From assembly GCA_016188425.1 (NCBI GenBank), contig JACPHX010000016.1:22161-86160 (forward strand): a stretch of 64,000 nucleotides of DNA, in the 5' to 3' direction. Made by a program: the position numbers and the translations under genes. Below are positions 345 through 47,607 of the stretch, piece by piece. The DNA comes from Candidatus Uhrbacteria bacterium. Its GTDB lineage: Bacteria > Patescibacteriota > Patescibacteriia > UBA9934 > GWF2-40-263. The stretch's first letter is position 1; every line of letters starts with the position of its first letter. The notes below the pieces were generated by a model. The model had not been told where the DNA came from. It searched no databases and saw nothing but the letters and a program-made list of their open reading frames with translations.

Positions 345-1478
345 TTACATAGTTACGGTCGCCTGCAAACGGCGTTCCGTATCCGGTTCCGGCCGTGGAG
401 ATTTCTCGGCTGCCAAGGCGGCCAAGTGGACTCGCGAGGGCGACGGTTTGTATCCGCTGGGAGGCCGCCACGTGAGGATGCTTTGGCGTTCCCCCTCTTG
501 CTGCTCGGGCCACACTTTTTCGTCGCGGTCGCTTTCCAGGACATGGATCCTGGAAAAAATCCTCTCCTGGAAACAGCGGGCCGAAAATCCCACCTGCCCC
601 TCACGAGCCTCTGCCATCTCGAGATTGAAACGGCTTGCCTCCAAGAGGGACTGCTCCGACCATCGCTTTTGCTCTGGCCAAAACTCGATCCACACCGATC
701 GACGAAACGCCCGATCCAAAGAAAGGATCGCTGCCGTTTCATCCCACATCGAGACACCCGCCCACACTTTCCATAACCCGATCGCACGAACGGGCTTCCG
801 AGGCGAGGGGACGAGACCATCCCTTCGTTGGCATGCCACCCGCACGACGGCCGGCCCTTGAGGCCAACGGGTCGTGTCGGGAAACGAAACCACGGGGGAA
901 GATACCATGCCAGCGGGAAGCATCGTGCCGTCTTGCACGCGCATTTCCCGCGCCGAAGAAATCAATGGCTCCCGCTTCGCGGGCAAGTACTCGAACTGGT
1001 CCCTCCACTCGGGCGGGGAGAGGAGCGACCACGGGTTGAGATCCGCTGGCAGCTTCCCCAAACGCTGAAGGAATGCTGGCAGGGATTGGAACTTCCCCGG
1101 GCCTCCCGGACGCCCCTTCACGCACCAAAAGCACCGAACGTATGGCTCCCAAGAACCAACGTGGTTCTCTCCCGTGAGGTACAAGCTGGCAAAACCAACG
1201 TGCTCGGATCGCCGGAGCGGCCACCCGATCGGCCACTCCAAAGAGCAGCCACCACATCGAACCATCTCGCTTTTCTTCATTTGGTTGGTGTCTCCTACTT
1301 CCACCACCCTGCTACCGTCTACGCCTACGGATGAACAGGGACCATGAGCAACGCGCTCTTCTCTACTTCCGCCTACGCCTGCGGAAGGGGCGAAGATACC
1401 ATGTTCAAACCTATTCGTCAAGCCAAAATCTTGGTAAAATGGAGACATATGGCTCGACGAAAAAAGCAAAAAGAACAA
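345..1478 (-). CDS. hypothetical protein (uncertain; longest ORF in a region with many overlapping high-GC ORFs)
   Basis: 377-aa ORF divergent from ftsK. No recognisable motif. The plus-strand ORF 178..861 is an alternative reading. The low-GC first ~340 bp may be non-coding. Confidence 0.25.
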   Translation of the reverse strand: MFFLLFSSSHMSPFYQDFGLTNRFEHGIFAPSAGVGGSREERVAHGPCSSVGVDGSRVVEVGDTNQMKKSEMVRCGGCSLEWPIGWPLRRSEHVGFASLYLTGENHVGSWEPYVRCFWCVKGRPGGPGKFQSLPAFLQRLGKLPADLNPWSLLSPPEWRDQFEYLPAKREPLISSAREMRVQDGTMLPAGMVSSPVVSFPDTTRWPQGPAVVRVACQRRDGLVPSPRKPVRAIGLWKVWAGVSMWDETAAILSLDRAFRRSVWIEFWPEQKRWSEQSLLEASRFNLEMAEAREGQVGFSARCFQERIFSRIHVLESDRDEKVWPEQQEGERQSILTWRPPSGYKPSPSRVHLAALAAEKSPRPEPDTERRLQATVTM

Positions 1479-3671
1479 GAAGATCTTGAACTATCCTTCT
1501 CCTCCACTGGTTTACACCCTGATACAAGGCGTGGCTTGCTCGCCCTGTGCGCCTTTGCCTTTTGTGCCCTCATCATCCTTTCATTCCTTGGACTGGCGGG
1601 GACTTTTGGCTTGTGGGTCTCCTCTTTTTTGTCTGTACTGTTTGGCATGGATCGCCTGCTGCTCATTCTCCTTTTCCTTGGGATTGGGTTCTCGCTTCTC
1701 TACCCGGAAAAATTCCGCATCTCTGTTATGGGAACCGTGGGAGTACTGCTTTTTTTCTTGAGTTTCAATGCCCTGCTGAATCTCCTCTTCCAAGACCAAA
1801 CGGCAGGCGGCCATGTCGGCTCCCTCCTTTCCACGAGTTTGCCCCACGCCCTAAGTTATTGGGGAAGCATCGTCATGTTGCTCTTCTCCACGCTGGCGGG
1901 AATCCTGCTTCTCTTCAACAAGCCGCTGCGCCATTTGTTTGTCCTCCCTTCACGCTCCCGTACGCAGGCTGCTGTATCCGACCCATTCCTTTCCACTGAT
2001 TCTGAATCCCCTTTTGATATTAAACTTACAGAGGACATAGAGGAGGAACCAACCCAATTGGATGAACCAATAGAACCAGAAGCGGAAACGGAACCGGAAG
2101 AAGAGGAACAGGAGGAGGAAAAAGTCCTAACCTCCAAACACCAACGAAAAGTGACGATTCCCCCCGATATTCTCGATTATCGCTCCAGTATTGCCAAATC
2201 CGGTGACTTGGAGCGGAACAGGCAAATCATTGGGAAAACGTTTTCCCAATTCGGTATCGATGTGGAGATGGGAGAGGAGTCGGTGGGGCCTACCGTGACC
2301 CAATTCACCCTGCGGCCTGCCCAAGGGGTAAAACTTTCTCGGATTGTCGGGCTTCAAAACGATTTGGCTCTGGCCCTCGCCGCCCACCCGATCCGCATTG
2401 AAGCCCCTATCCCGGGAAAGTCCTTGGTGGGAATTGAAATCCCCAACAAAACCGCCGCCACCGTCTCGCTGCGAGACATCATAGAGGCACGAGAATTCAC
2501 GCAACGAAAAACCGACCTCACTTTTGCCCTTGGCAAGGATGTCTCGGGTAAACCCTGGGTGGTCCCTCTGGAAAAAATGCCCCACATACTCGTCGCAGGT
2601 GCGACCGGTTCAGGAAAGAGCGTCTGCCTCAATAGCATCATCATCTCATTCCTGTACGCCAACGGACCAGACGATTTGAAATTGATCCTCGTTGACCCCA
2701 AGCGGGTGGAGTTGAACGCTTACGCCGGCATCCCCCACTTGCTTGTCCCGCCGATCATCAAGGCAGAAGACACGGTCAACGCCCTTAAATGGACGGTGCG
2801 CGAGATGGAACGCCGCCTGGACACGCTCTCAAAATTCGGGACGCGCGACATTGCTTCTTATAACAGCAAGAGCGAGGAGAAGATGCCGAAAATCGTCGTG
2901 ATCATCGATGAGCTGGCTGACCTTATGGCCGTCAGCGGACGGGAAGTGGAAGCGACGATCACCCGTATCGCCCAAATGTCGCGTGCGGTGGGTATCCACC
3001 TCGTGCTCGCGACCCAACGCCCGTCGGTAGACGTCATTACCGGCGTCATCAAAGCGAACATCCCCGCACGCATCGCCTTTGCCGTGGCCTCCCAGGTAGA
3101 TTCGAGAACCATCTTAGATTGCTCTGGTGCCGAAAAACTCCTTGGCCGCGGGGACATGCTCTTTAGCTCTGCGGAACTCTCAAAACCAAAACGTATCCAG
3201 GGTGCCTATGTTTCCGAGGAAGAGGTCGGTCGCGTGGTAGACTTTCTCAAAAAGCAAGGCGCTCCTGACTACAACTACAGCGTCACAGAAGTCGCACGTT
3301 CTTCCACCGTCATGGGCGACGACGGTGAGGCAGAGGATCCCCTCTTTGAAGAAGCTGTTGAAGCGATCCTCCAAGCCCAAAAAGCATCAACTTCTTTCCT
3401 TCAACGACGCCTGCGCATCGGCTATTCGCGTGCGGCCCGTCTTATTGATCTCCTTGAGGACCAGGGGGTCATTGGCGCGGGAGAGGGAGCAAAACCCCGC
3501 GAGGTGATCGTTGACAGTTGGCCGCCGGAAAAGGAAGCGGCACCAGCGAAGACCCAAAAGGCAACCCCACCCGGCCTCCCCTTTGCAGGGGAGGGGTTTG
3601 TGGCAGGGGAGGAGTCTACGAGTACGGGTGAGCGGAAGAAGGGAGTTGATGAGGAAGAGGAGGATGCGTAA
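1449..3671 (+). CDS. ftsK: DNA translocase FtsK/SpoIIIE
   Basis: N-terminal multi-TM region, acidic/Pro-rich linker, Walker A GATGSGKS, and a motor domain with C-terminal gamma-like winged helix (SFLQRRLRIGYSRAARLIDLLE). The ORF track start is 1344; ATG at 1449 is preferred because GGAGA lies 4-5 nt upstream. Confidence 0.9.
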   Translation: MARRKKQKEQEDLELSFSSTGLHPDTRRGLLALCAFAFCALIILSFLGLAGTFGLWVSSFLSVLFGMDRLLLILLFLGIGFSLLYPEKFRISVMGTVGVLLFFLSFNALLNLLFQDQTAGGHVGSLLSTSLPHALSYWGSIVMLLFSTLAGILLLFNKPLRHLFVLPSRSRTQAAVSDPFLSTDSESPFDIKLTEDIEEEPTQLDEPIEPEAETEPEEEEQEEEKVLTSKHQRKVTIPPDILDYRSSIAKSGDLERNRQIIGKTFSQFGIDVEMGEESVGPTVTQFTLRPAQGVKLSRIVGLQNDLALALAAHPIRIEAPIPGKSLVGIEIPNKTAATVSLRDIIEAREFTQRKTDLTFALGKDVSGKPWVVPLEKMPHILVAGATGSGKSVCLNSIIISFLYANGPDDLKLILVDPKRVELNAYAGIPHLLVPPIIKAEDTVNALKWTVREMERRLDTLSKFGTRDIASYNSKSEEKMPKIVVIIDELADLMAVSGREVEATITRIAQMSRAVGIHLVLATQRPSVDVITGVIKANIPARIAFAVASQVDSRTILDCSGAEKLLGRGDMLFSSAELSKPKRIQGAYVSEEEVGRVVDFLKKQGAPDYNYSVTEVARSSTVMGDDGEAEDPLFEEAVEAILQAQKASTSFLQRRLRIGYSRAARLIDLLEDQGVIGAGEGAKPREVIVDSWPPEKEAAPAKTQKATPPGLPFAGEGFVAGEESTSTGERKKGVDEEEEDA
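3558..3610. repeat. GC-rich hairpin element family 1 (CCTCCCCTT-GC-AGGGGAGG core), copy inside the 3' end of ftsK, in-frame
   Basis: The sequence ggcaaccccacccggcctcccctttgcaggggaggggtttgtgg is ~85% identical to 5572-5620 and shares its core with 52085-52135. It encodes ATPPGLPFAGEGFVAGEE in the FtsK C-tail. Confidence 0.6.
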
Positions 3672-3683: not shown

Positions 3684-4349
3684 ATGGCCTTCCTTATACG
3701 AAAACTTGGCGACCAGGAGCCGCTGGGCTCGCGCTTGCGCACCCTGCGCAAGCTTGCCAACCGTACATTGTCCGAGCTCGAACAAGAGACAAAAATCCCA
3801 AAAAAAATCATCGCCGCCTTTGAAGAAAACGCCTACGACAAGCTCCCGGCTCCGATCTATTCCAGGCATCTGCTCCGCCTCATCGTCCGCACGCTCGGAG
3901 CGGAACCAGTCTATTTCATCGAACGCTTCGACTCGGAGCGTGGCACCAGCGATTTTCTCAAGGAAGCCCGCCTCCCTCTGCTGCGCCGCCGCGCGCGCGA
4001 TTTTTTCGTGCCAGCCAAACTTATCAAAGCCCTCCTCCTCTCTTCCTTGCTGGCCGCCTTCTTTGGCTATCTCGGCCTGGAGGTACGCGCAGCCATCTCT
4101 GCTCCTGTCCTTTCGGTCTACTCCCCAGACGACGGACTCGAGACCAAGGAGGCCCTCGTCCACATCGTCGGCGAAACCGAAACCCGCGCGCATGTGCGCG
4201 TGAACAACCGTCCTGTGCTCCTTTCCCCAGACGGCTCGTTTTCGACCGACGTTTTTCTGCGCCGCGGGGTGAATTTGATCACTATCGAGTCTGCAAAGCG
4301 GTATTCGCGGCCGACACAGGAGTATAGAAGAGTAATTTTTACGCCGTAA
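3684..4349 (+). CDS. RodZ-like cytoskeleton protein (N-terminal HTH, single TM)
   Basis: The HTH region LRTLRKLANRTLSELEQETKIPKKIIAAFEENAYDKLPAPIYSRHLLRLIVRTL resembles the RodZ XRE-type HTH. It is followed by a basic stretch and a TM helix LIKALLLSSLLAAFFGYLGL. Confidence 0.55.
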   Translation: MAFLIRKLGDQEPLGSRLRTLRKLANRTLSELEQETKIPKKIIAAFEENAYDKLPAPIYSRHLLRLIVRTLGAEPVYFIERFDSERGTSDFLKEARLPLLRRRARDFFVPAKLIKALLLSSLLAAFFGYLGLEVRAAISAPVLSVYSPDDGLETKEALVHIVGETETRAHVRVNNRPVLLSPDGSFSTDVFLRRGVNLITIESAKRYSRPTQEYRRVIFTP

Positions 4350-4390: not shown

Positions 4391-4449
4391 TCGCTGCTAA
4401 CTCTCGGGGTTAGCAGTGCCAACCCACAGAGTTAGCGCCGCATCTGTGG
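4391..4449. repeat. Palindromic element family 3 (GCTAAC-CTCGGGGTTAGCA-TGC), copy 1, intergenic between the rodZ-like gene and recA
   Basis: tcgctgctaactctcggggttagcagtgcc plus a second hairpin ccacagagttagcgccgcatctgtgg. Related to 35876-35922 (ctgctaacgctcggggtta, 24/26). Confidence 0.5.
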
Positions 4450-4514: not shown

Positions 4515-5561
4515 ATGCCAAAAATATCGGAACAGGACGGACGGTCACGGGCGGCCATGACGGCCATCAGCCAAATCAAGGAACGCTTCGGCGAAGGGTC
4601 GATTATGCGTTTGGGCGAGGCCAAGGCGATGAATATTGAGGCGCTTTCAACAGGATGTCTCTCCATCGACCAAACGCTTGGAATCGGCGGCGTCCCCCGC
4701 GGCCGTATTATTGAAATCTACGGCCCAGAATCATCTGGAAAATCCACGCTCGCCCAGCACATCGTCGCCGAGGCGCAGAAACGAGGCGGTATTGCTGCCT
4801 ATGTCGACGCGGAGCACGCGCTGGACCCGGAATACGCCGCAAAGATAGGCGTGAACATCAACGAACTCTTCATCTCCCAGCCGGATACGGGAGAACAGGC
4901 GCTTGAAATCGTCGAAACGCTCGTCCGCTCCAATGCGGTAGACGTCATCGTCATCGACTCGGTCGCCGCCCTCACGCCAAAGGCGGAAATCGAAGGAGAG
5001 ATGGGTGATTCCCACATGGGTCTCCAAGCCCGATTGATGAGCCAAGCGCTCCGCAAGCTCGCGGCCATCGTCAACAAATCCAAGACGACCGTCCTTTTTA
5101 TAAACCAGATCCGCATGAAAATCGGCGTAGTCTTCGGCAACCCCGAAACCACTCCGGGCGGCACGGCGCTCAAGTTCTACTCCTCCGTCCGTATCGAAAT
5201 CCGTCGCGCCGCCCAGATTAAGCAAGGCGACGCGATCATCGGCAACCGCGTAAAACTTAAGGTCGTTAAAAACAAGGTAGCTCCCCCTTTTCGCACTTGC
5301 GAGTTCGACATTATGTACAACGAGGGCATCTCGATCTCGGGTGACTTGCTCGATTTGGGAACCAGTACTGGTGCCCTCAACAAGAGTGGCAATTCCTATA
5401 GCTTCCAAGACACGAAACTGGGCGTCGGTCGCGAGGCGGCAAAGACGACGCTTCGAGCGGCGCCAGAACTCATGGCAGCCATCCGCAAGGCAATCGAGGG
5501 GAAGATGTTGGCGCCAGTAGTGGCGAACGACAGCGGGGAAAGTGAGGGGGATACGGAGTGA
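4515..5561 (+). CDS. recA: Recombinase RecA
   Basis: Full-length RecA signature: [18 protein letters not shown] Walker A, L1/L2 loops, and C-terminal acidic tail. Confidence 0.95.
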
Positions 5562-5571: not shown

Positions 5572-5622
5572 CGGGCAACCCCACCCTGCCCTCCCCTTGG
5601 CAGGGGGGGGTTCTGTGTCGGA
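5572..5622. repeat. GC-rich hairpin element family 1, copy immediately downstream of the recA stop
   Basis: ttcgggcaaccccaccctgccctccccttggcagggggggttctgtg. The stem is ccctgccctcccctt/ggcaggggggg. It may also serve as the recA terminator hairpin, but there is no T-tract. Confidence 0.55.
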
Positions 5623-5691
5623 TTCGACAGCCCAACCTTCTGGAGGAGGGGCTTTTTATGAAAAAACAGACAATCTCTAGGAGACTGCCTG

Positions 5692-8144: not shown

Positions 8145-8167
8145 AGGGGGGTGGAGAATGGAGAATG

Positions 8168-8220
8168 GGGAGTGTCCGGCGGAGCCGGATCCGGCTCCGC
8201 CGGAGAGCATGACGGAGGGG
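8168..8220. repeat. Palindromic element family 2, copy A (perfect 30-bp palindrome tccggcggagccggatccggctccgccgga), intergenic epmA-efp
   Basis: A 36-bp core gtgtccggcggagccggatccggctccgccggagag is identical to 15590-15625. Flanks are also similar (ggg.gtgtccgg ... ggagag.(c/a)(a/g)tgacgg). Confidence 0.8.
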
Positions 8221-9334: not shown

Positions 9335-9559
9335 TTAACGTTGAATGAATGGAATCAACGCCATGATGCGCGAACGCTTCACGGCTACGGCGAGTTGGCG
9401 CTGATGCCCCATGCACACCTTGCTGCGCTTGCGCGCGACAATCTTTCCGAAACTCGAAAGGTAGCGGCGCAACAGGCCGACATCCTTATAATCGATTTCT
9501 TCTACTTTATGCAGACAAAAGCCGCAGACGCGCTTTTTGCCGTTGGTTTGTGATTTCAT
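9335..9559 (-). CDS. rpsR: 30S ribosomal protein S18
   Basis: 74 aa with KRVCGFC...EIDYKDVGLLRRYLS..GKIV.RK..K....QRQLAVAVKRSR. Part of the canonical rpsF-ssb-rpsR order. Confidence 0.9.
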   Translation of the reverse strand: MKSQTNGKKRVCGFCLHKVEEIDYKDVGLLRRYLSSFGKIVARKRSKVCMGHQRQLAVAVKRSRIMALIPFIQR

Positions 9560-9565: not shown

Positions 9566-10057
9566 TTAAAAAGGAATATCTTCCATGCGAATCTCTTCCG
9601 AGGGCTTGGCAGACGGGTCATCTTTTGGTGGGGCAGGTGGCTTGAATGCGGCCGGGGCTCCCTCCCCCCCGACCCCCCCTCGGGCAGGGGGGGACCCCGC
9701 TCCGGAGACGGGAGCTCCGCCTCCTCCTGGGCGATCTAGGAGAATGACATTGTCAGCGACGATTTCGGTGCGGTAGCGGCGGACGCCATCTTGGCCTTCC
9801 CAATCACGGGTCTGGAGACGCCCTTCTATGTAAACCTTTCGTCCTTTGGTGAGATACTGGCCGCAAATTTCTGCCAGCTTGCCCCAAGCTACGACATTAT
9901 GGAACTCGGTCTGTTCCTGCTTTACCCCCTGCGGATCCGTCCATGCCCGGTTGGTGGCCACCGCAAAACTGCAGACGGATTGTCCAGAGGGGATCTGTTT
10001 GAGCTCCGGGTCGCGCGTGGTATTGCCAAGGAGCGTGGCGCGGTTGAGTGAGTACAT
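9566..10057 (-). CDS. ssb: Single-stranded DNA-binding protein
   Basis: OB fold (NRATLLGNTTRDPEL, FHNVVAWGKLAE), Gly-rich linker, and acidic C-terminal tail ending DIPF. Confidence 0.9.
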   Translation of the reverse strand: MYSLNRATLLGNTTRDPELKQIPSGQSVCSFAVATNRAWTDPQGVKQEQTEFHNVVAWGKLAEICGQYLTKGRKVYIEGRLQTRDWEGQDGVRRYRTEIVADNVILLDRPGGGGAPVSGAGSPPARGGVGGEGAPAAFKPPAPPKDDPSAKPSEEIRMEDIPF

Positions 10058-10058: not shown

Positions 10059-10571
10059 TTAGGCCTGTTTCGTTATATCTCCGCCTTCGGCGATCGCATC
10101 CAGCTTCTGATCGAGCTCTTCCATGCTGATCGGGGTGGTAGGAGCGAGAGCGGCCGGTGTAGGCGCCATGAGCTTTGGCATGTCGCGACGAGGAGGAGTA
10201 GTAGCAACATCTCCCCCACGGGCTTCGCGTGCTTCCTCCGACAGCGGAGCGACGTAGGAAGTGATTTCGTATTTGCGCTCCTGGGCGAGTTTGCTGGGAA
10301 CCGTAATCATGTGTCGGAGAACCTCCGGAGCAAGGGCCAGGCCGCGATCCAGCTCCTGCATCGCTTCCGGGGCGGCTTCAAAGTAGACAAGGATGTAGGT
10401 TCCAAACTGTATCCCTTTAATAGGATAGGCAAGACGGATCTTTCCAAGATTCTCGTGGCGGCCAGGAGTAGCGCCGTATTTGGCCAAAAGGGCTAGCACG
10501 GTCTCCTGTACCCCCTCTACTTCCTTTTCCGTATAATCGCCTGAAACAATATAAAGCAATTCGTAGGTCAT
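10059..10571 (-). CDS. rpsF: 30S ribosomal protein S6
   Basis: YELLYIV...RLAYPI core with an extended acidic/Pro-rich C-tail. Start taken at MTYELLYIV. The ORF track extends to 10598. Confidence 0.8.
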   Translation of the reverse strand: MTYELLYIVSGDYTEKEVEGVQETVLALLAKYGATPGRHENLGKIRLAYPIKGIQFGTYILVYFEAAPEAMQELDRGLALAPEVLRHMITVPSKLAQERKYEITSYVAPLSEEAREARGGDVATTPPRRDMPKLMAPTPAALAPTTPISMEELDQKLDAIAEGGDITKQA

Positions 10572-10754
10572 AGGTTCTGGGCTGTTTTGCACAGCCAACC
10601 CTTTAGGGGTTATGGACAGAATTAAAGAGTGAATGCGGATATATAACCAGCTGGAGGGGGGATGGTCAAGATGCGGATAGAAAGATGAAAGGCTGGGAGG
10701 GCCAGAAATGGCTAGAAAGAGCGAGGAGGGCTGTGGGAAAAGGGCGGGATGATA

Positions 10755-13700
10755 CTAGCGGTTGGATATGAGAGGGACTAAGCGCATTTGGTGATCGATG
10801 GATGGAGCCGCGGCGCGGGCGGCGGTTGGGTCGAAAACATCCCGGTTTACTTGGGAGAGCGGTATCCCCTTTTCATAGGAAGAGACGAAGGAATCCGATA
10901 GGTCGTCCACGGCTTTTTGCCAGCCAGGACCGAAATAGTCGTGCGCCACTGCCTCTGTCTCAAGCGGATACAGGATTCCTCCCGCTCCCACGCCATACAC
11001 CTTGGGATCCGACACAACCTTCACCATCTTTCCCGGTCGGTACAGCACGTCCCCCGCCAAAGGAACGGCCGCGAGATCCTGTTCAGGAATGATGATGAGC
11101 GATCGGTAATCCGAAAACCAGGTAAAAAATATGCGCTCATTGGGGAAGGCGTGGCGCTCCCCATCCATGCCGAGGTAATACACCGTCCGGCAGGGATGCG
11201 TGAAATCTTCCCACCCAGGACACTCAAATTTGAGGAGAGGCCCGCCAACCGGCTGCGCAAAAATGTCGTAACCAAACGTAGAACGTATGGATGCCTCCAG
11301 TACCTGCCGTTGATTGGTAAGAGCGGCGAGCGTTAATCCACCCGGCAAATCGTAGATGATGGTTGCTCCAACCAAACCACCAAACTGACCGCTCAATGAT
11401 TGGGCGCGGGCGAAGAGTACATACACCCCTTCTGCCGCAGGAAGCGTATAGGTCGTTTGCGTCACGCCCCCTTGCATGGGCTGCCACAGCGCCCCCGCAA
11501 ACGTCGGGTCGGGAGAAATCTGGTTCTGGCTTGCTCCGTAGGATTGATAGGTAACCTGGATCACGGGAGAATCTGTCACTGACGCTCCCCCATTTAGGAG
11601 CAGACGCCCCGCCACGGGCGCCATGGTCGTGAGAGCAGAGGCGCGCGGGTTTGGGGGTGGGGGCGGGGCGACCGATTGGAGATAAATGAGATAGGACGCT
11701 CCGCGATCTGCTCCAGAGGAACTTTCAGTCGGGGTGCCTGTCAAAAAATCCGGAACGCCATTCCCATCCAAATCACTCACCATGGCGACCGACCTCCCAA
11801 ACCCGCCGGGGGATGGAATCTGCGGGGATCCGGTTCGGTTCGGAAGAATATTCATGGTACGAATGATCGTCCCGTCCGCATTGAGAAAATGGACATACGC
11901 CGCCCCCATATCCGTTCCGATCGTATCTGTCCCAGGGGCGCCTACAACCAAATCTTGAATGCCGTCCGCGTTCACGTCCCCCGCAAAGGCAACGGAAGCG
12001 CCATACTGGTCCCCTGCCATCACCGGAGCGCCAAAGAAAGTTTGTCCTGTTAATTCAATCGTCCTTTTCACGGACCCGTCCATATTCATGAGATGGATGA
12101 ACACGCTCCCCTGTTCTTCCCCCAGAACCAGCCGCTCCGGAGCGCCAACGGCGAGATCCTGGACGCCATCATGATCGACATCTCCGATCAGCGTCACGGA
12201 CTGGCCATAGCCTTCATCAATCCCAAGACCAGCCGGCCCATTGGGAGAAAGATTGTTTATGGAAACCGTCCGTTTGACCCGGCCATCCGCTTGCAAGAAA
12301 TGAATATACACATTGCCTGCGCCGCCGTTTGCAAGCGGAGTCGACACGGCCAAATCCGCGATCCCATCGCGATCTAAATCCCCTACGCCCGCAAGCGAAG
12401 TCCCGTATTCGACTCCCGCGGAATGCAACGGACCATTTGGCGTAGCAGAATTGATCTCCGCTGTGCGTTGGATGCTTCCATCCCGGCTCATGTAGTGGAT
12501 GAATACCGCACCTTGGGCCATCCCTGGGTTTTGATCATGTGTCGCAGAAACGGCGATCTCTTGAACGCCATCGCGATCCAAGTCACCAATCAGAGTCATG
12601 GCGCTTCCGTAGCGATCCTTGGGGAACAGGAGCGCGCCTCCCCGGGTAAAGGCATTCAGTTCCGTTGTTTGCTTCACCCGTCCGTCTGCTCGAAGGAAGT
12701 GGATGTAGGCAGACCCAACTTCGATGCCTCCTGTATTGTCGTCTGGAGATCCAACCAGAACATCGGCGACACCGTCACGATCCAAATCCCCGATGCTGGT
12801 CACAGAACTTCCATACTGATCCAAATCCGACAGGACAGGGCCATTCTCAACCGCCTCGCGAATGACGACCGATCGATTCGGCTCCGCGTACGAGTATGTC
12901 GCCGTCCTCCAGGAGAAGGCATTGCGGCCAACCACCGCATCAGGAAAATCTTCCTCGGCGAAAATGCCTTTAAAAAGCCAGCTGTCGTCCACATCGATAA
13001 AATCATCGGCCACCTCTGCCCCGACGACATTCAAAAACGCAGGCGTTCCAGAGACGGTCGAACGAATGCGCAGCCGATTCGTCGTGGAAACGCCGCGTGC
13101 CTCAAACCGATGCAGGATGGATTGGGTGATCATGGGCTCAAACAGAACCGTTTGCGCTCCGATCAGATCCAAATCGTAAAAGGTGTTCGACCCGAGTATG
13201 GTTTGCGTATTGGAAGGGCGATCGAAAATGAAATGTGCGGTTCCAGGATCAAACCCGCCCGTGAGATGCCGGAAGTCCCCGGAGATATGAACGGTTGCCG
13301 TCCCCGCATGAACCGTGCCTCGATACTCGTTGCGCCATCGTATGGTGCCGACGTTCAAATCGACGTCGATGGTCGCATCCGCTTGTGAAGCGTTACCGTC
13401 GAAGATGGCTCCATGGTCCACGACCGCCCCGACGCCAGGCGCCCCGCCCAAACAGTTCTGCCAGTTCGCGGGCGTGCTCCATTTTCCGTCCCCGGAGGCG
13501 TTGATCCAGATACATTCTGCCCCAGGCTCCCCTGGGCCATCCGGATCCCGGGGAGAAAAAGGAACAAAACTCACATACACCACCCCCTTCTCTACTCCAG
13601 TCGCTTGTTCATGAGAAAGACCGGACGCAAAATCCACGAGCCCATTTTTATCCATGTCCCCCAAGGCCGAGAGCGACATTCCCAAACGAGGAAATCGCTG

Positions 13701-15518
13701 GATCGAACTGACCTCTGGAGTGCTTTGCACGATAAATTCTGTTTTTAGAACGGATCCATCTGCGGCCATCTGATGCACATACAGGCCGCCGACCGGCGCC
13801 CCATCAACATCCCTCCCCGGGGCGCCGACAAGCAAATCGGGGACGCCGTCCCGATTATAATCACCCACGCCGATCACCGCGTGCCCATAGGCATCAAAAT
13901 CAGAAAGCTGCGGACCGTTCATGGTCGTCTTGTCGATGAATACCGTCCGCTTCACGCTGCCATCCGCATTCATCAAGTGAATATACAGCATGCCGCGATC
14001 TGTCCCCCCTCCGTTAGTAAACGGCGCTCCAACCGCCATGTCCGTCACCCCGTCGCCATCAAGGTCACCGATGGATCCGAGCGCAAACCCGTATCTCCCG
14101 TTTGCCTCGAGGCCCGCCGGTCCGTTGCTGGTCAGACGATCTATCGTAACGGTCCGTTTCACGGAACCGTCTGTTTTCATGAAATGAATGAACAGCCGGC
14201 CAAATTGGCCATCTGCCCCGCTGGCCCCAACCGCCAGATCCGCCACCCCATCGGCATCGATATCTCCCAGCGAGGCGAGGGAGGATCCGTAACGATCCCC
14301 CGCCACAAGGACGGCTCCGTTTGGCGTGAGGCCATCTAGGCGGATCGTCCGGCTGATGCCGCCCGCGAGCGTGAGCGAGTGAATTTGCACGGCCCCCGCC
14401 CCTCCGTTTGCCCCCGGAGAACCAACCGCCACCTCCACGGCTCCGTCATGGTTCAAATCCCCCACCGCTGCCACCGACGATCCGTACAGATCCCCGGCCG
14501 CAAGCGCGGGACCATTGGGTGTGGCGGCGGTAATTTGTGCGCTTTGCCTCACAGACCCATTTTGATTCAGGAAAGAAAGATACGCCGACCCTGCCTCCGG
14601 GGCCGATGCATCGTTGTTGGGCGAAGCCATGAACAGATCCGTCGTCCCATTGCGGTCTACATCTCCCACATTGGCCACCGCATAGCCGAACCGGTCACCG
14701 GCAACAATGCCTTGAGGCCCATTCACGACCGAACCGTCAATTTTGATAAAAGGAGCCCGACTGGGTTCGGCATCCCGCCCTGGGGCAAACCATAAACGGT
14801 TATTCCCGCGATTTTGCGAGTTCTGCGGATTGAGTGGACGCACCCCGTCCTGCACGAGCCATTGGTCTTGCACGTCTACGTGAGTCGCGCTCGCTGCTGC
14901 CCCTTTCACGTTGATGATGGACGCGAGGCCGGGGATACGCGAGACGATTTTCAATGGCTGGCCACCTGTCACTCCCGCGGCCTGAAAAGCGGCGGTGACG
15001 CGTGTCGTCACCCCTGGCTCCAAGACTATGGTTTGTCCCCCCAAAAATCGAAGCGTTGAAAAAGCAGTCGCCCCTGTGATGGTTTGAGAGGAACCGGCCG
15101 CACCGTCAAACACCACCGTAGAGGTAGCTGCGACGAATGTCCCTCCCAAATGGGAAAAATCCCCTTTGATTTGCATGGTATGGGTGCGCGCCGTGAAGAA
15201 ACCATTGTAACTTTGCAGCATCCGGAAAGAATTGATGGAAACTGAACGGTCTAAAAAAGCATTCGATTGAGAAACCGTGCCATCAAAAACCACATCCGCC
15301 CCCGTAACGATCCCTACCCCAGGCACCCCTCCCAAACAGCCGCTCCAGTTCCCCGCATTGTTCCACAACTGCGTGCCCGCCCCATTGGTCCACGTACAAG
15401 TGGCGGGAACAGCAGAGCGACCGATGCGAATGCCGTAGAAGGCAATGACAACCGCCGTCAAAAAAACACACGCAAGGACAGAGGAACGGCGACGCGAAAC
15501 AGCGCGGAAGGAGAGCAT
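10755..15518 (-). CDS. Giant membrane-anchored FG-GAP (integrin-alpha-like) repeat protein, 1587 aa
   Basis: N-terminal TM anchor. The N-terminal module is duplicated (CTWTNGAGTQLWNNAGNWSGCLGGVPGVG / CIWINASGDGKWSTPANWQNCLGGAPGVG). Roughly 20 FG-GAP-type repeats follow (YGSS..xxGDxDxDGVxDLxVGAP), then a Pro-rich linker and a ~230-aa C-terminal domain. Confidence 0.75.
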   Translation of the reverse strand: MLSFRAVSRRRSSVLACVFLTAVVIAFYGIRIGRSAVPATCTWTNGAGTQLWNNAGNWSGCLGGVPGVGIVTGADVVFDGTVSQSNAFLDRSVSINSFRMLQSYNGFFTARTHTMQIKGDFSHLGGTFVAATSTVVFDGAAGSSQTITGATAFSTLRFLGGQTIVLEPGVTTRVTAAFQAAGVTGGQPLKIVSRIPGLASIINVKGAAASATHVDVQDQWLVQDGVRPLNPQNSQNRGNNRLWFAPGRDAEPSRAPFIKIDGSVVNGPQGIVAGDRFGYAVANVGDVDRNGTTDLFMASPNNDASAPEAGSAYLSFLNQNGSVRQSAQITAATPNGPALAAGDLYGSSVAAVGDLNHDGAVEVAVGSPGANGGAGAVQIHSLTLAGGISRTIRLDGLTPNGAVLVAGDRYGSSLASLGDIDADGVADLAVGASGADGQFGRLFIHFMKTDGSVKRTVTIDRLTSNGPAGLEANGRYGFALGSIGDLDGDGVTDMAVGAPFTNGGGTDRGMLYIHLMNADGSVKRTVFIDKTTMNGPQLSDFDAYGHAVIGVGDYNRDGVPDLLVGAPGRDVDGAPVGGLYVHQMAADGSVLKTEFIVQSTPEVSSIQRFPRLGMSLSALGDMDKNGLVDFASGLSHEQATGVEKGVVYVSFVPFSPRDPDGPGEPGAECIWINASGDGKWSTPANWQNCLGGAPGVGAVVDHGAIFDGNASQADATIDVDLNVGTIRWRNEYRGTVHAGTATVHISGDFRHLTGGFDPGTAHFIFDRPSNTQTILGSNTFYDLDLIGAQTVLFEPMITQSILHRFEARGVSTTNRLRIRSTVSGTPAFLNVVGAEVADDFIDVDDSWLFKGIFAEEDFPDAVVGRNAFSWRTATYSYAEPNRSVVIREAVENGPVLSDLDQYGSSVTSIGDLDRDGVADVLVGSPDDNTGGIEVGSAYIHFLRADGRVKQTTELNAFTRGGALLFPKDRYGSAMTLIGDLDRDGVQEIAVSATHDQNPGMAQGAVFIHYMSRDGSIQRTAEINSATPNGPLHSAGVEYGTSLAGVGDLDRDGIADLAVSTPLANGGAGNVYIHFLQADGRVKRTVSINNLSPNGPAGLGIDEGYGQSVTLIGDVDHDGVQDLAVGAPERLVLGEEQGSVFIHLMNMDGSVKRTIELTGQTFFGAPVMAGDQYGASVAFAGDVNADGIQDLVVGAPGTDTIGTDMGAAYVHFLNADGTIIRTMNILPNRTGSPQIPSPGGFGRSVAMVSDLDGNGVPDFLTGTPTESSSGADRGASYLIYLQSVAPPPPPNPRASALTTMAPVAGRLLLNGGASVTDSPVIQVTYQSYGASQNQISPDPTFAGALWQPMQGGVTQTTYTLPAAEGVYVLFARAQSLSGQFGGLVGATIIYDLPGGLTLAALTNQRQVLEASIRSTFGYDIFAQPVGGPLLKFECPGWEDFTHPCRTVYYLGMDGERHAFPNERIFFTWFSDYRSLIIIPEQDLAAVPLAGDVLYRPGKMVKVVSDPKVYGVGAGGILYPLETEAVAHDYFGPGWQKAVDDLSDSFVSSYEKGIPLSQVNRDVFDPTAARAAAPSIDHQMRLVPLISNR

Positions 15519-15555
15519 AGATAGGAACAGTATACAGCAAGAGGACGGATCTCTT

Positions 15556-18500
15556 TTAGGTTTTGAGGGAGGAGGCGTGAGGTGGGAGGGTGTCCGGCGG
15601 AGCCGGATCCGGCTCCGCCGGAGAGAGTGACGGGGAAGGCTTGTGTTGTGCTGTTCCGGAGGGGAGAGGGCTCATGTCTACACGCATGCTCAACAGTTCC
15701 GGCTGTTTGATAGAACGATAATCGATAGGACGCACCTCGGTGGTTTGATACCCTTCCTTTTCGAAGGTGGCGTAATACTCGTTGGGACCAAGAAGGAAGT
15801 GGTAGCGTCCGTTGCGGTCGGTAAGACGGGAGTCGATAAGCTTGTTGTAGAGCGGCTCAAACACACGGATAACAGCATCTCGCAACGGTTTTTTCGTGGA
15901 CTTGTCATATACGATCCCCCAGCTCTTCGGTTTGCGCGGGCGAACCAGAACGAACACAAGAACGAGCAAGACGACCTGCAAAATGAAGACACCGATTGTG
16001 AACGCAGAAGGATGAAGAATAAGGACGACAAGCGCCAACACGACGCTCGCCCACGAGAGCGCCGACTCAAGGCGGCGAAGGCGACGTTTCCAACGAATAC
16101 GCAACGCTTCTTTTTCTCCCTTTTCCAAAATGGGATCTAGCGGGATATTGGCGCTAATAACGGCGTTTTTATCTGTCACGCGGATCACCTCGCCGTGATA
16201 GACATCCAAATATTCGCCATCCGTACGAACTTTCTTGAGCCATTCGCTTGGGAAGGAAAACTCCGGCTTGGTCACTTCAATTTGATACTCGCCAGGATCC
16301 GCCAGAAATTCATACATCCCATCTTTCCCAGTGACCCGCGTACGCACCACCTTCGCGTCGGGCAAACGCAGGAGACGGACGACCGCCAATTCAACCGGCA
16401 GCTTTATCCCCGAATGGTACACGACCCCGTATCCTTTTCGTTTCCGCTTAAAGAAAAGACGCAGGGGTTGGGTGAACAAGAGCTGAAGGAACGGCCACAG
16501 TTGGAATTGCAACAACAGAAAACCGATACTGATAGCAGAAAGCGGAACGAACATGAAAGAGAAGCCATCAGCAATCCCGCTCAACAAAGCCCACAGCGAA
16601 AGCTCCGGCCCGGGAATCATAATCTGGGGGTTGATGATGCGGTCTCCATCATCCTCAACCGGCGACCACCCGCTTCCAAGGAGATCCTTAACTCCCTCCA
16701 CGGAATACCGTCCGGCAGGAACATACCAGTAAAAACTGCCATCTACTGGAGTTTCTAAAGGATTCTGTTGGAAAAATGCCGCAATGTTCATGGGGCGATC
16801 TAGCCCGAACTCACGCACATACAGCCGCGCAGAGGCCCCCGAGAGCGGCTGGATAATGCCATCTTGATTCCGCCACACCAACCGGCCGCGCGGCTGCGCC
16901 TCCAGCACATAAGAAAACGACTGCTGCGTGCGATCCTGATAGGTCACCAAGAGAAGCAGGGCGTAATTGCTGACGACGGCAGGGACACGCAAGGTTCCGA
17001 CCCATCCACGATCATCCGTGACCAGCGAGGAAGAACTCGTAGAAAAGTAGGCGTCTATCTTTTCGATCGCTTTGGTTCCCTCATCTGGAATGAGACGCAC
17101 TTGAACGTCTGTATCCACCACCGCGCGGAAACGAATTTCCTGAAGCGGCAGTTCGATTGTCTCGCTTTGTACAAGGAAATGATTCTCTTCCCCAGAAAGC
17201 TCCCCCGGGCGAAGCGGAAACGCCGTGCAATCAACCGGACAGGTCAGAATACTCTCCCCTTTTCCGCAAAATCCGTTTCCACACGCGATGGTGCACCCAG
17301 GGCCGACGCAAATGGGACAGGCCGACCCTACGCAAGGGAGCGGGCAATCCCTCACGCAACTTGCCGGGTCTTCACCGATGCCGCAGACGAGATCACCGCA
17401 GACGGGCGCGCATCCTGGCCCCGTACACGCAGAACAGCCAGGACCGACGCAGGCCACACAATTTGGCCCTGTGCACGGTGCTGGACAATCGATAATGCAG
17501 TTGGCGAGATCCTCCCCGATGCCGCAGACGAAATCTCCACAGACGGGCGTACAGCCAGGGCCCGTACAGGACGCCGGGCAATCGATAATGCAGTTGGCCA
17601 AATCTTCATTCAGGCCGCAGATAAAGTCTCCGCAAAAACCGTTTGTCTGCAATAAGGTTTTGCACGCAATATCTCCCGTCTGGTCAGAGAGAGCCCCGCT
17701 TTGTGACAAGTAGCGCGCCGTATAGGTCGTATCTTGCTGCAACCCGGTCACGGGGAAGGAATGCGAAATGACATACGCGTTGTTCACGAGATGCACGTTC
17801 TTATTGTTGGGATCTGCGCCATACAGCACATCCCCGTCCGCAGGGATATTCGTCTCCCATGCCCAGGTAAGCGAATTATACGAAACGTCCTCGCACCGAG
17901 GGTTGGAAATAAGCACCGGGACGCCAGAGGGACAAACGGGGGTGGCATTGGTAAACGCCCCTGTATAAAATTGGTTCACGCTATCGTACCCGAACACCCC
18001 GTAATAATACGTCGTCCCCGAAACCGCGCTTGAATGGACAAACGTCGTGCTGGCACCATCGTACAGCACGGTTCCGTCATTCTCATCCGCGGGGTAGGTA
18101 TCCGTCCTATACACCACGCGCGCGCCCACCAAAGGCGGAGGAAGCGTCCAGGTTAAACTGTTCTGGCAAAACCCCGGCGTCACGGTAACGGTTATGGGAG
18201 TAATCGGGGGCAAGCCGAAGGGGATGCCGGAATCCAGCGCGATGGGCGCGAACGACCCATTGCTATCAGAGGCGAACGCCGCGTAAAAATATTCCTGACC
18301 GGATACGATCCCTGGGTGCATGAGCGAGCTTCCGGGGCCATCATACAAAAACGTACCATCGGCAATACTGACTGGATAACGATCCAATCGATAAACGATG
18401 ACGGTGTCGACATAAGGAAATCCGGAGGGCGAATACCACGCCAAGTTGTTTAAATACAGCCCAGGCGTGACATCGAGCACTAAACTGACAACCGCGGAAC

Positions 18501-19704
18501 AATCCGGAGTCTGAAACACCAAATCGGTCGATTCGTTGGTATTTCCATCCTGGTCCGTCACGGCAATTTTTGCGCGATACGCGGTTTGGGGGGAAAGCCC
18601 GCTCAACGTAACCGCATGCGAGAGCGCGGGTGTGGAACTCAAAACGGGGCCTAACCCGTACAAGGGAGTAAGCCCATACACCACCGAACCTGTCGTGGGC
18701 CGGTTGGTATCCCACACGACCGTTGCTTCCGTGCAGGAGAGCAAATTGACATGGGGAGCAAGAATAAGCGGATCGGTTGTGTAGGGGGTATGGAACGTGA
18801 GGGTGAGAGCGGCAAAATTGTTACAAAAATCTTCCGAAGTGATCCGCGCCTCATAATCCATTCCAGGGGTGAGCCCGGTAAGGTTGTAGGAATGAGCTAT
18901 CACCAACGATCCGCTGAAAAGCGTCCCGTCATAGGGCGGAGTCGGTGCAACCCCCCAAGAAACCTGGTCGTTGGCATTCTCGTTGGTGGACCACGAGACG
19001 ACAGCAGACGTTGGGGTGATCCCTGAAATACTCGGGTTGATAAACAAAGGCGCGACCGTATCGCTGCATCCGCCTCCTCCGCCCGGGGGAGGCGCCGCTC
19101 CTACCGAGGCCGTAATCTCCACTTCATCATCCGACACGATAGAGATGGCCGCTTGGTTGGCATCCCCAAACCCGCCCGTCACCGCGACCTCAAAATTCCC
19201 CTCGACCGCAGGATTGACGATCTGATTCACCCCTGCCCCGCCGAAACCGCTGATCGTACCAACCTCGATTTGCACGCAGCGTCCTCCCGGTATTTCTCCG
19301 GCCGCCGCGTCCGTGGGAGGGGTAAAGGCAATCTCCTGCCCCGCAATCCCCACGCCCCAAATACCAGCCGCTGCCGCAACCGCCAGCGTTTCATCCGTAA
19401 ACGGGCCATCGCAAGCCCCGTCGTCATCCACGGCAAAATCAAAATCCAATGGGCTTGAAAGCGCGGTTAAGTCCCATCCTGCCTCATACACCAACTTCAC
19501 GGTATCGGTGGAACTGTCGACCCCCGTAGGCGTCACGAAACGAACGACGTGATTGGTCACTTCTCCTGTCGATTGCGCACTCGGAGTCACGGAATAACTG
19601 GTCAAGATCGCGGCAAAGGCAACGGAGACAAATTGGAACAATAAGGCGGTGGAAACACCGAGAAAACTCACCCAAACTGCTTTTCGTAGCATCGCGATAG
19701 TCAC
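15556..19704 (-). CDS. Giant surface protein, 1382 aa: signal/anchor, FN3-like domains, three tandem Cys-rich CGDFVCGxGEDxxNCxxDCP repeats, then multi-TM region with two carboxypeptidase-regulatory-like beta-sandwich domains
   Basis: Hydrophobic N-terminus. FN3-like segments (VVSWSTNENANDQVSWGV...YEARITSED). The Cys-rich repeats lie at about nt 17200-17650. C-terminal TM helices are interleaved with GVVYHSG...EYQIEV and GIVYDKST...EYYATFEKEGY modules. The last ~20 codons are contributed by palindromic element family 2. Confidence 0.7.
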   Translation of the reverse strand: MTIAMLRKAVWVSFLGVSTALLFQFVSVAFAAILTSYSVTPSAQSTGEVTNHVVRFVTPTGVDSSTDTVKLVYEAGWDLTALSSPLDFDFAVDDDGACDGPFTDETLAVAAAAGIWGVGIAGQEIAFTPPTDAAAGEIPGGRCVQIEVGTISGFGGAGVNQIVNPAVEGNFEVAVTGGFGDANQAAISIVSDDEVEITASVGAAPPPGGGGGCSDTVAPLFINPSISGITPTSAVVSWSTNENANDQVSWGVAPTPPYDGTLFSGSLVIAHSYNLTGLTPGMDYEARITSEDFCNNFAALTLTFHTPYTTDPLILAPHVNLLSCTEATVVWDTNRPTTGSVVYGLTPLYGLGPVLSSTPALSHAVTLSGLSPQTAYRAKIAVTDQDGNTNESTDLVFQTPDCSAVVSLVLDVTPGLYLNNLAWYSPSGFPYVDTVIVYRLDRYPVSIADGTFLYDGPGSSLMHPGIVSGQEYFYAAFASDSNGSFAPIALDSGIPFGLPPITPITVTVTPGFCQNSLTWTLPPPLVGARVVYRTDTYPADENDGTVLYDGASTTFVHSSAVSGTTYYYGVFGYDSVNQFYTGAFTNATPVCPSGVPVLISNPRCEDVSYNSLTWAWETNIPADGDVLYGADPNNKNVHLVNNAYVISHSFPVTGLQQDTTYTARYLSQSGALSDQTGDIACKTLLQTNGFCGDFICGLNEDLANCIIDCPASCTGPGCTPVCGDFVCGIGEDLANCIIDCPAPCTGPNCVACVGPGCSACTGPGCAPVCGDLVCGIGEDPASCVRDCPLPCVGSACPICVGPGCTIACGNGFCGKGESILTCPVDCTAFPLRPGELSGEENHFLVQSETIELPLQEIRFRAVVDTDVQVRLIPDEGTKAIEKIDAYFSTSSSSLVTDDRGWVGTLRVPAVVSNYALLLLVTYQDRTQQSFSYVLEAQPRGRLVWRNQDGIIQPLSGASARLYVREFGLDRPMNIAAFFQQNPLETPVDGSFYWYVPAGRYSVEGVKDLLGSGWSPVEDDGDRIINPQIMIPGPELSLWALLSGIADGFSFMFVPLSAISIGFLLLQFQLWPFLQLLFTQPLRLFFKRKRKGYGVVYHSGIKLPVELAVVRLLRLPDAKVVRTRVTGKDGMYEFLADPGEYQIEVTKPEFSFPSEWLKKVRTDGEYLDVYHGEVIRVTDKNAVISANIPLDPILEKGEKEALRIRWKRRLRRLESALSWASVVLALVVLILHPSAFTIGVFILQVVLLVLVFVLVRPRKPKSWGIVYDKSTKKPLRDAVIRVFEPLYNKLIDSRLTDRNGRYHFLLGPNEYYATFEKEGYQTTEVRPIDYRSIKQPELLSMRVDMSPLPSGTAQHKPSPSLSPAEPDPAPPDTLPPHASSLKT
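15585..15635. repeat. Palindromic element family 2, copy B, embedded in the 3' end of the giant gene CDS (encodes ...SPAEPDPAPPDTLPP...)
   Basis: 36-bp core identical to 8173-8208. It lies just inside the stop codon (15556) of the 1382-aa ORF. Confidence 0.8.
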
Positions 19705-19752
19705 AAAAAGTCGATAGGAATTACGGGGCTTGGGATAGCTAGGGAAGAAATA

Positions 19753-35822: not shown

Positions 35823-35875
35823 AAGAGAGATGTAATGGGGAGTATATCGGCGGGAAGGAGGAAAAACAAGGCGTC

Positions 35876-35922
35876 GGCCGCTAACCCCGAGCGTTAGCAC
35901 TGCTAACGCTCGGGGTTAATAG
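35876..35922. repeat. Palindromic element family 3, copy 2 (perfect 17-bp inverted repeat taaccccgagcgttagc / gctaacgctcggggtta)
   Basis: Lies between the relE-like stop and the ychF start. Related to 4391-4449. Confidence 0.6.
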
Positions 35923-35967
35923 AATTAAAAAGCTCCGCTGGCTGGAGCCGAGACGAAGCGTTCGGCA

Positions 35968-47531: not shown

Positions 47532-47607
47532 TGGTGTCCCTGGAGGGACTTGAACCCCCATCTCATCCTTAGGACGGATTTGCTCTATCCAGTTGAGCGA
47601 CAGGGAC
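47532..47607 (-). tRNA. tRNA-Arg (anticodon CCT)
   Basis: Minus strand GTCCCTGTCGCTCAACTGGATAGAGCAAATCCGTCCTAAGGATGAGATGGGGGTTCAAGTCCCTCCAGGGACACCA. Anticodon loop GTCCTAA. Confidence 0.85.

Follow-up and report, generated by a model that had tools for sequence, protein, structure and literature searches.

Four short G/C-rich elements in a 64,000-nt stretch of a Candidatus Uhrbacteria genome (assembly GCA_016188425.1, contig JACPHX010000016.1, positions 22,161 to 86,160; this whole stretch is called the window in the following) probably represent a G/C-rich intrastrand triplex motif of class II and would thus be DNA-level repeats of the class to which the BoxC, PIT and TM elements belong. Three of them are translated as parts of ftsK, polA and ssb, and the fourth follows recA. 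The class itself is already known. What is new is the host, a member of the Candidate Phyla Radiation (CPR, Patescibacteria), and the in-frame seat within essential genes.

Three-arm anatomy of the elements in the window

The copies are designated here c1 to c4. The first three read GGCAACCCCACCCGGCCTCCCCTTTGCAGGGGAGGGGTTTGTG (c1, 3560-3603), GGCAACCCCACCCTGCCCTCCCCTTGGCAGGGGGGGGTTCTGTG (c2, 5574-5617) and CAAACCCCCTCCAACTCCCCCTTGGCAGGGGGAGAGTCCGTG (c3, the reverse complement of 52089-52130, with the element on the minus strand). An initial annotation of this DNA had described these three as hairpin-forming palindromes, two of them inserted in frame into ftsK and polA. Direct reading of the sequence and its translations finds all three elements and the peptides assigned to them in place, and the translations together with the Pfam gene identities bear out the in-frame position in both genes. 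What had been overlooked is a third, mirror-symmetric arm, by which the elements belong to a published class of intrastrand triplex motifs (PMC4666352) and are not simple palindromes.

A three-arm finder (arms of at least 7 nt with at most one mismatch, first loop of 3–8 nt, second loop of 1–6 nt) detected four loci in the window, among them c4, a copy beyond the three originally noted, and no G/C-rich match in 200 dinucleotide-preserving shuffles. All four copies also fall within the ITxF definition, in which the Y, R and reverse-Hoogsteen arms succeed each other in this order with a stem of 6–15, loops of 1–6 and at most one mismatch, the latter allowed for stems of at least 7 nt (criteria from PMC4666352). 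On the G-rich strand of c1, which is the minus strand, the Y arm CCTCCCCT is followed by the loop GCAA, the R arm AGGGGAGG, the loop CCG and the reverse-Hoogsteen arm GGTGGGGT; the stem is 8 nt long, the loops have 4 and 3 nt, and 8 perfect base triplets are obtained without a mismatch. The G-rich strand of c2 is built from CCCCCCCCT, GCCA, AGGGGAGGG, CA and the third arm GGGTGGGGT (stem 9, loops 4 and 2, 9 triplets, one Watson-Crick mismatch) and that of c3, here the plus strand, from CTCCCCCT, GCCA, AGGGGGAG, TTG and the third arm GAGGGGGT (stem 8, loops 4 and 3, no mismatch, 8 perfect triplets). The sequence of c4 is CCCCCCC TGCCCGA GGGGGGG TC GGGGGGG, scored by the three-arm finder with a stem of 9, loops of 3 and 2 and one mismatch. 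Throughout c1 to c4 the third arm obeys the antiparallel purine-motif rule, with G opposite G-C and A or T opposite A-T. In ftsK and polA the sense strand of the gene is the C-rich one, in ssb the G-rich one.

The hairpin core taken alone had seven matches in the window versus 2.4 expected, a number equalled by 3 of 100 shuffles, and a 13-mer from the flank alone was not significant in the window. The core hairpin by itself barely exceeds chance; the case rests on the three-arm architecture together with the existence of a family. Within the window, c1 and c2 share about 86% of their nucleotides over a length of 44 nt, flanks included. The kinship of c3 with these two, part of the initial annotation, is weak when judged from its own sequence (71% over 42 nt), but it is validated by the family, because a near match to c3 exists in another Uhrbacteria genome (L033).

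The positions of the elements and their host genes are compiled in Table 1. The FtsK peptide PGLPFAGEGFVAGEE is found in the translation C-terminal of the gamma domain (aa 663-723). Within the full unit of c1, the 10-mer GCAGGGGAGG occurs twice, at 3585-3594 and 3601-3610, 16 nt apart, and gives rise to the peptide AGEGFVAGEE; a local slippage or duplication event at the element's 3' arm could have produced this doubling. The only intergenic copy in the window is c2, whose unit begins 12 nt downstream of the recA stop codon. PolA residues 297-313, NPLQLPLGRGRVRGV, are encoded by c3 and come directly after the 5'-nuclease domain, to which the alignment with the Taq enzyme extends (up to aa 294). 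The region is 100% identical across contigs from three independent sequencing runs, therefore the elements are not an assembly artefact. No further copies were found in the 3.3 kb to the left and the 9.3 kb to the right of the window, so that about 77 kb of the source genome contain four copies, a density of approximately one per 19 kb.

Table 1. Elements c1 to c4 and the genes that host or precede them, in window coordinates
Feature	Position	Strand	Description
c1 core	3564-3594	-	predicted core of the triplex motif; C-terminal tail of FtsK, about aa 741-751
c1 full unit	3560-3610	+	flanks in common with c2 (GGC...GGTT.TGTG); encodes TPPGLPFAGEGFVAGEE
c2 core	5578-5610	-	predicted triplex motif core, recA 3' flank
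c3 core	52097-52127	+	predicted triplex motif core in the polA linker after the 5'-nuclease domain
c4	9662-9693	-	probable copy inside ssb, Gly/Pro-rich disordered linker, about aa 122-132; encodes SPPARGGVGGEG
ftsK	1344-3671	+	Pfam; host of c1
recA	4515-5561	+	Pfam; c2 in 3' flank
ssb	9566-10057	-	Pfam SSB at aa 4-106; host of c4
polA	50347-53025	-	Pfam and Taq alignment; host of c3

A family shared across phyla

The initial annotation had regarded the elements as a family private to one genome. This view had to be abandoned when a pattern fitting c1 to c3 (AACCCC-N7-13-CCCCTTNGCAGGGG, 19 specified bases, a single loop type) was scanned against a collection with one genome per species (596 Gb) and against metagenomes. 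It matched at least 118 stretches in the species-representative genomes and at least 120 in the metagenomes, from several phyla; the statements on individual hosts here and below refer to the matches listed, which for the genome collection do not include the source genome. Many copies per genome are present in Rahnella, Methylovulum, Marinomonas, Cellvibrio, Thiothrix and Aeromonas. Near-identical 38-nt elements occur in Gammaproteobacteria, Burkholderiales, Ignavibacteria and several Patescibacteria, and the Patescibacteria that carry the element are two other Uhrbacteria, a Magasanikbacteria, a Saccharibacteria and three further metagenome-assembled genomes (MAGs). BLAST searches added megaplasmids of Azospirillum and Deinococcus and returned no match on phages or small mobile plasmids. 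The plasmid matches are confined to megaplasmids or chromids of genera whose chromosomes also bear the element, and viral-contig matches to the core mostly fall short of the full three-arm motif.

The consensus of the family is AACCCC[A/C][C/T]CCC-[2-3 nt]-CC(C)TCCCC(C)-TTNGCA-GGGG(G)AGG-AGC. Besides the near match of c3 mentioned above, c4 has one in a further locus (L094). The right flank GT(T/C)(T/C)(T/C)GTG is common to c1, c2, L033 and L072, from which a sub-family within Uhrbacteria can be delineated.

The scan pattern left the third arm unconstrained, and this arm is nevertheless conserved. In 132 unique matches that were parsed, the layout is consistent: the segment 5' of the hairpin mirrors the C-rich arm or, put otherwise, is the parallel complement of the G-rich arm. 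Arm length and position of the interruption co-vary in all three arms, giving sets such as C5TC2/C2TC5/G5AG2, C4AC3/C3TC4/G4AG3, C6T/TC6/G6A, C7/C7/G7 and C4ATC2/C2TTC4/G4AAG2. Taking the matches listed from both scans together yields 241 unique elements, 195 of them with an informative asymmetric purine arm of one of 10 types (for instance G5AG2, G4AG3, G6A or G4AAG2). The third arm is perfectly mirror-symmetric in 176 of these 195, and a direct-repeat rule fits only 30. The interrupting base of the third arm is exclusively A or T, which is the antiparallel purine-motif third-strand rule (G.G-C, A.A-T or T.A-T triplets) as stated in PMC4666352. The conserved TTNGCA represents the closing T-A pair, extended to a T.A-T triplet, around a GCNA tetraloop, and this extension explains why the flanking A and T are conserved.

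An Rfam scan by E-value of seven element-bearing loci returned only spurious microRNA-like matches. Accounts of such motifs from Patescibacteria or from within genes were absent from the searchable literature, which was queried also by sequence strings.

In Candidatus Thiothrix moscowensis (L089, 6369-7954, and L145, 351-7590) the motif forms tandem arrays that repeat about every 105 nt. Triplex variants of the G4AG3 type and the G5AG2 type alternate there in opposite orientation, in a BIME-like manner, and the arrays generate long spurious open reading frames (ORFs).

Residence within reading frames

None of the other homologues retrieved, 119 for FtsK and 119 for PolA, contained the peptides encoded by the elements. 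No G/C-rich triplex motif was present in the orthologous loci of the nearest relatives, which amount to about 75 kb (polA, ftsK and recA regions; L269-L272). Both results agree with the lineage-specific insertion postulated initially, and ancestral peptide segments, which homologues from other taxa could have revealed, did not appear in this set. The next-best homologues are 61% identical for FtsK, 59% for PolA and 82% for RecA. The segments that host the elements are hypervariable and presumably disordered: all FtsK proteins of Uhrbacteria have a variable acidic tail after the gamma domain, and all PolA proteins have a variable linker of 14–60 aa after FRTLLRKH.

A clean case was found outside of the window. 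UvrB of a Magasanikbacteria (L031) carries an insert of 14 aa (42 nt) just before the DESH box when compared with solved UvrB structures. It reads ...DYFSR-ERNPSLTLPLAGAG-SFLTVIDESH..., the match is gap-free on both sides, and the element makes up these 42 nt. RecO (L214) and LeuRS (L246) were likewise aligned to solved structures, with poor alignments that defined no insertion boundaries.

Further intragenic copies in CPR genomes are located in uvrC, topA, dprA, glyA (in the tail), mltG and a cyclophilin gene; elsewhere they reside in hsdM, recO, a UvrD/AddA-like gene, an Eco57I-type methylase gene, argS, leuS, mnmA and genes for HSP20 and FemAB. In dinB, malQ and pqqF the copies sit at the end of the gene and are translated as part of the C-terminal tail. 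Translation proceeds from the C-rich strand in ftsK, polA and uvrB and from the G-rich strand in ssb, uvrC and topA, and the encoded peptides vary from copy to copy. Because the peptides differ and both strands are translated, the constraint lies on the nucleic acid and neither on the peptide nor on one particular transcript strand.

In the hsdM case (L059, 3792-3902, a Thiotrichaceae MAG) an inverted pair of triplex motifs is in frame at aa 451-477, in the region of the N6_Mtase domain. The PolA linker of another Uhrbacteria genome (L272, 10001-12655, P0247, about aa 329-335) harbours a different perfect hairpin, CCCAGGC-TTCA-GCCTGGG, encoding SPRLQPG. This peptide is present in 2 of 50 aligned PolA homologues, and the related SPRPQPG, RRLQPA, RGLQPA and RELQPA in 6 more. 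The PolA linker of this clade may have been colonised repeatedly by short palindromes.

A model for the elements and its weak points

According to our model, the G-rich strand, once single-stranded, would use its first two arms, C_mTC_n and G_nAG_m around a 4-nt G..A loop (GCNA), for a Watson-Crick hairpin. After a second loop of 2-3 nt, the mirror arm G_m[A/T]G_n would lie antiparallel in the major groove and form G.G-C and A.A-T or T.A-T triplets. By analogy with the E. coli motif, the window copies may fold transiently in this way during replication, repair or transcription. The family multiplies within genomes and turns up nearly unchanged across phyla. The Uhrbacteria genome offers little intergenic space, and its copies have probably become fixed where they do least harm, namely in the FtsK tail, the disordered linker of SSB, the interdomain linker of PolA and the recA 3' untranslated region. 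In-frame copies would be tolerated because the C/G-rich sequence is nearly free of stop codons and encodes linker-like peptides rich in Pro, Gly, Leu, Arg and Glu. The copies appear to be neutral or mildly selfish and not to serve their host genes.

Several observations weigh against this model. A search of both window strands with a regular expression for the strict pattern of TM_ECO, the E. coli motif, gave no match, and we therefore assign the window copies to a separate family of this class. Even with the motif from E. coli, no stable triplex or protection was detected in vivo (PMC4666352). The closest relatives are only 58–61% identical in PolA and FtsK, which leaves the window insertions undatable; the hypervariability of the host segments means that no exact empty site can be demonstrated for them, and the element-bearing PolA linker is only about 5 aa longer than typical. 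Membership of c4 in the family is probable and less than certain, since runs of G and C are expected in a tract coding for Gly and Pro. The near-identity across phyla in the absence of a phage or mobile-plasmid carrier is not explained by a purely neutral repeat. It is explained in part by the small sequence space of a G/C triplex closed by a stable G..A tetraloop, and the shared flanks (AA..., ...AGC) suggest that common descent or transfer contributes as well. Finally, the apparent bias of the hosts towards genes for DNA metabolism hints at something beyond neutrality.

A possible association with genes of DNA metabolism

All four window copies are in or beside ftsK, recA, ssb and polA, and genes for DNA metabolism account for about 17% of the length of the window. 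If gene length alone determined the positions, the probability of such a coincidence would be 0.17^4, or about 8e-4. The same family sits inside uvrB, uvrC, topA and dprA in other CPR genomes. The copies inside recO, the UvrD/AddA-like helicase-nuclease and the Eco57I-type methylase come from metagenomes, the hsdM copy (Thiotrichaceae, L059) from the genome collection and the dinB tail copies from both. When the window and the listed matches are combined, 13 of 28 annotated hosts are genes for DNA replication, repair, recombination or modification, compared with 4 of 40 neighbouring ORFs at the same loci (Fisher p = 0.0013). The value becomes p = 0.03 if only annotated neighbours and the other window genes serve as reference, and p = 0.002 for the CPR-like subset (8 of 11 hosts).

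One could therefore ask if the elements have a function tied to genome-maintenance genes, acting as a recognition or uptake-like signal or as a structural sensor of single-stranded DNA or supercoiling that is kept in genes for replication, repair and recombination. There is a precedent for the former in DNA uptake sequences, for which a genome-maintenance bias of roughly 2-fold has been described and contested (PMC2817400). We consider such a function unlikely. The gene categories were defined post hoc, numbers are small, the genes were called by hand, and the scans covered a single loop type with partial listings of matches. Many hosts are unrelated to DNA (argS, leuS, mnmA, glyA, mltG, purD, HSP20, FemAB), while holA, rmuC, an xerC-like integrase gene and a methylase gene in the window lack the motif. 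Large multidomain DNA enzymes perhaps simply have more disordered linkers. An element shared across phyla is the opposite of a species-specific signal, and its density of about one per 19 kb is far below that of uptake sequences, which occur about once per kb. In E. coli, PIT elements had no effect as promoter or terminator or on conjugation (PMC4666352).

A narrower version of this idea is that triplex repeats are in the CPR preferentially inserted or retained in frame in genes for replication, repair and recombination (ftsK, ssb, polA, the recA flank, uvrB, uvrC, topA, dprA, recO and uvrD-like), which would imply a functional or mechanistic link. This we regard as doubtful. If it were true, the repeats might be passed on when single-stranded DNA is taken up and recombines homologously through conserved genes or, alternatively, form a structure that senses single-strandedness or supercoiling within those genes. 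Either mechanism could account for a nearly identical 38-nt element in the CPR and in distant phyla.

Alternative explanations

A second alternative to the DNA-level repeat proposed here is action at the RNA level, as an intrinsic terminator or an mRNA-stabilising 3' hairpin, for which c2 would be the best candidate. It is located directly behind recA, is followed by TTCTGTGT, and its plus strand was flagged as weakly terminator-like by a simple scan (5 T in 8). It is also the only copy to stand out from shuffled sequences when folded as RNA (-30 kcal/mol, z = -2.3). The hairpins proposed initially are distinct at the RNA level for c2 but unremarkable for c1 (z = 0.32) and c3 (z = -1.13). ViennaRNA models only Watson-Crick and wobble pairs, and folding energy discriminates poorly because the composition itself is self-complementary. 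Within reading frames, as for c1, c3 and c4, termination would truncate essential proteins. Moreover, the copies are oriented both with and against transcription, another T-rich candidate terminator is present 30 nt downstream of c2 (5636-5650), none of the seven loci scanned matched an Rfam family, and PIT elements have no terminator activity in E. coli (PMC4666352). An RNA-level role is therefore very unlikely.

Repetitive extragenic palindromic (REP) elements moved in trans by a RAYT/Y1 transposase would agree in size (30-45 nt), in the presence of a hairpin and in the presence of multiple copies, and the Thiothrix clusters with their two variants in alternating orientation recall BIMEs. 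However, the GTAG/CGTC tag is missing, as the C-rich strand begins with AACCCC and ends with GGTT or AGC. Three of the four window copies are intragenic, Pfam found no transposase family among the 26 window ORFs scanned, and a conserved mirror arm has no role in REP biology. The E. coli motif is also not linked to mobile elements (PMC4666352). Such an origin is highly improbable.

An origin by chance, as G/C sequence of low complexity in linkers rich in Pro and Gly, or an identity as G-quadruplex motifs is hardly conceivable. It is true that c4 lies in a Gly-rich linker and that c2 and c4 contain canonical G-quadruplex patterns. But c1 and c3 do not, while all four fit the triplex rule, shuffled sequences were devoid of three-arm motifs, c1 and c2 are 86% identical with their flanks included, c3 and c4 have their counterparts in L033 and L094, and nuclear magnetic resonance (NMR) showed the E. 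coli motif to be a triplex and not a quadruplex (PMC4666352).

Two rearrangements were considered and rejected. One was that c1 and c2 are direct repeats bounding a mobile cassette of a helix-turn-helix (HTH) gene and recA; the family is dispersed, with copies in ssb and polA, and the adjacency of ftsK and the HTH gene is conserved in a relative. The other was an inversion relative to the genome of that relative; here the 588-aa neighbour and the 581-aa gene of the relative proved to lack homology.

Other features of the window

The ssb gene is flanked by ORFs at 10059-10598 and 9335-9559, which are rpsF- and rpsR-like as judged by translation alone. A perfect palindrome of 30 nt, TCCGGCGGAGCCGGATCCGGCTCCGCCGGA, occurs twice with 100% identity (8175-8204 and 15593-15622) within 67-nt stretches that are 82% alike (8149-8215 and 15567-15633). 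Its second copy lies in the last codons of a 1382-aa ORF (15556-19704, minus strand). It looks like a second, unrelated family of short palindromes. Related sequences of 40 nt at 4398-4437 and 35879-35918 (also 3920-3956 versus 35928-35964) contain inverted repeats of the TAACNCNCGGGGTTAGC type. They are located upstream of recA and at the start of a ychF-like GTPase gene (34758-35900, minus strand) and could represent a shared operator or promoter-region motif.

Two pairs of long inverted repeats are tRNA genes: 36764-36839 and 47360-47435 correspond to tRNA-Ala(GGC) and tRNA-Ala(CGC), and 47532-47607 and 61390-61464 to tRNA-Arg(CCT) and tRNA-Arg(TCT). Between the two tRNA-Ala genes lies a block of about 10 kb with a TPR protein and a 2405-aa protein. 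Four very large ORFs of 1587, 1382, 3211 and 2405 aa are on the minus strand at 10755-29388 and 39697-46914. Those of 3211 and 2405 aa have extensive internal repeat blocks in common (66–89% identical), and the 1587-aa ORF, the only one of the four scanned with Pfam, contains FG-GAP repeats. All four probably encode surface proteins of the kind that is typical of CPR genomes.

Implications

Hairpins of this kind should be read as members of a cross-phylum class of triplex-motif repeats and not as the private family of one genome. The function of this class and its mode of spread have been unsettled since the 1990s. The CPR offers what E. coli does not, namely in-frame copies in conserved essential genes, for which insertion boundaries, timing and tolerance can be read against aligned protein families and solved structures, as with the insert before the DESH box of UvrB. 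Should the genome-maintenance bias survive a genome-wide test, it would be the first functional handle on this class of repeats and might serve to trace the exchange of DNA between CPR symbionts and other bacteria. In annotation work, the elements account for odd Pro/Gly/Arg-rich segments in FtsK, SSB, PolA, UvrB, UvrC and TopA of the CPR.

Comparison with known repeat systems

The closest known relatives are BoxC, the PIT element and TM_ECO from E. coli and other Proteobacteria (Bergler 1992; Hoyne et al. 2000; Holder et al. 2015, PMC4666352). TM_ECO follows the pattern CCCTCNCCC-N3-6-GGGNGAGGG-N3-GGGNGAGGG, a class II purine motif, with TTA (type A) or CCG (type B) as second loop and frequent inverted pairs of both types; 3610 copies are known from 262 proteobacterial genomes, and in E. 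coli K-12 they are always intergenic (PMC4666352). As single-stranded DNA the E. coli motif forms a very stable triplex by circular dichroism and NMR, it arrests DNA polymerase in vitro, raised local sequence variability accompanies PIT elements, and a link to transposons, phages or plasmids is missing (PMC4666352). Triplex motifs that are G/C-rich but differ in sequence abound in other genomes, such as those of cyanobacteria (PMC4666352). The elements described here share with BoxC, PIT and TM_ECO the order Y, loop, R, short loop and reverse-Hoogsteen arm, G/C-rich arms of 7–9 nt with one A/T interruption and second loops of the TTA/TTG or CCG kind (CCG in c1, TTG in c3). Frequent copies with one mismatch, the multi-copy state, the lack of a phage or mobile-plasmid link and inverted pairs of two types (here in the Thiothrix arrays, dprA and hsdM) are further common traits. 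They differ in their arms, which are G4-7 with one A instead of GGGNGAGGG, in the first loop GCNA, in the translation of three of the four window copies, and in their host, a CPR bacterium with a reduced genome.

The comparison drawn in the initial annotation, that with Rickettsia palindromic elements (RPEs), applies to behaviour. RPEs, too, are selfish-looking in-frame repeats that also enter essential genes and add a tolerated peptide segment, as the 14-codon insert in UvrB does. It does not extend to membership in that family. RPEs are 100-150 bp long and restricted to Rickettsia, in contrast to elements of 31-45 bp that occur across phyla and combine a mirror with an inverted repeat in a triplex design instead of a long palindrome. 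The distinction is drawn by length, distribution and design.

REP/BIME elements and REPINs are likewise short, GC-rich, hairpin-forming and multi-copy, with clusters of alternating orientation in some genomes. The window elements are set apart from REP/BIME by the missing GTAG/CGTC tag, the lack of a RAYT among the window ORFs scanned, the conserved third mirror arm and the intragenic position.

The DNA uptake sequences (DUS) and uptake signal sequences (USS) of Neisseriaceae and Pasteurellaceae are short repeats as well, also present within coding regions and with the contested genome-maintenance bias mentioned above (PMC2817400). They are unstructured, clade-specific and 9–12 nt long, and they are about 20 times denser than the elements found here, of which there are four per approximately 77 kb and whose motif, built from three arms, is shared across phyla.

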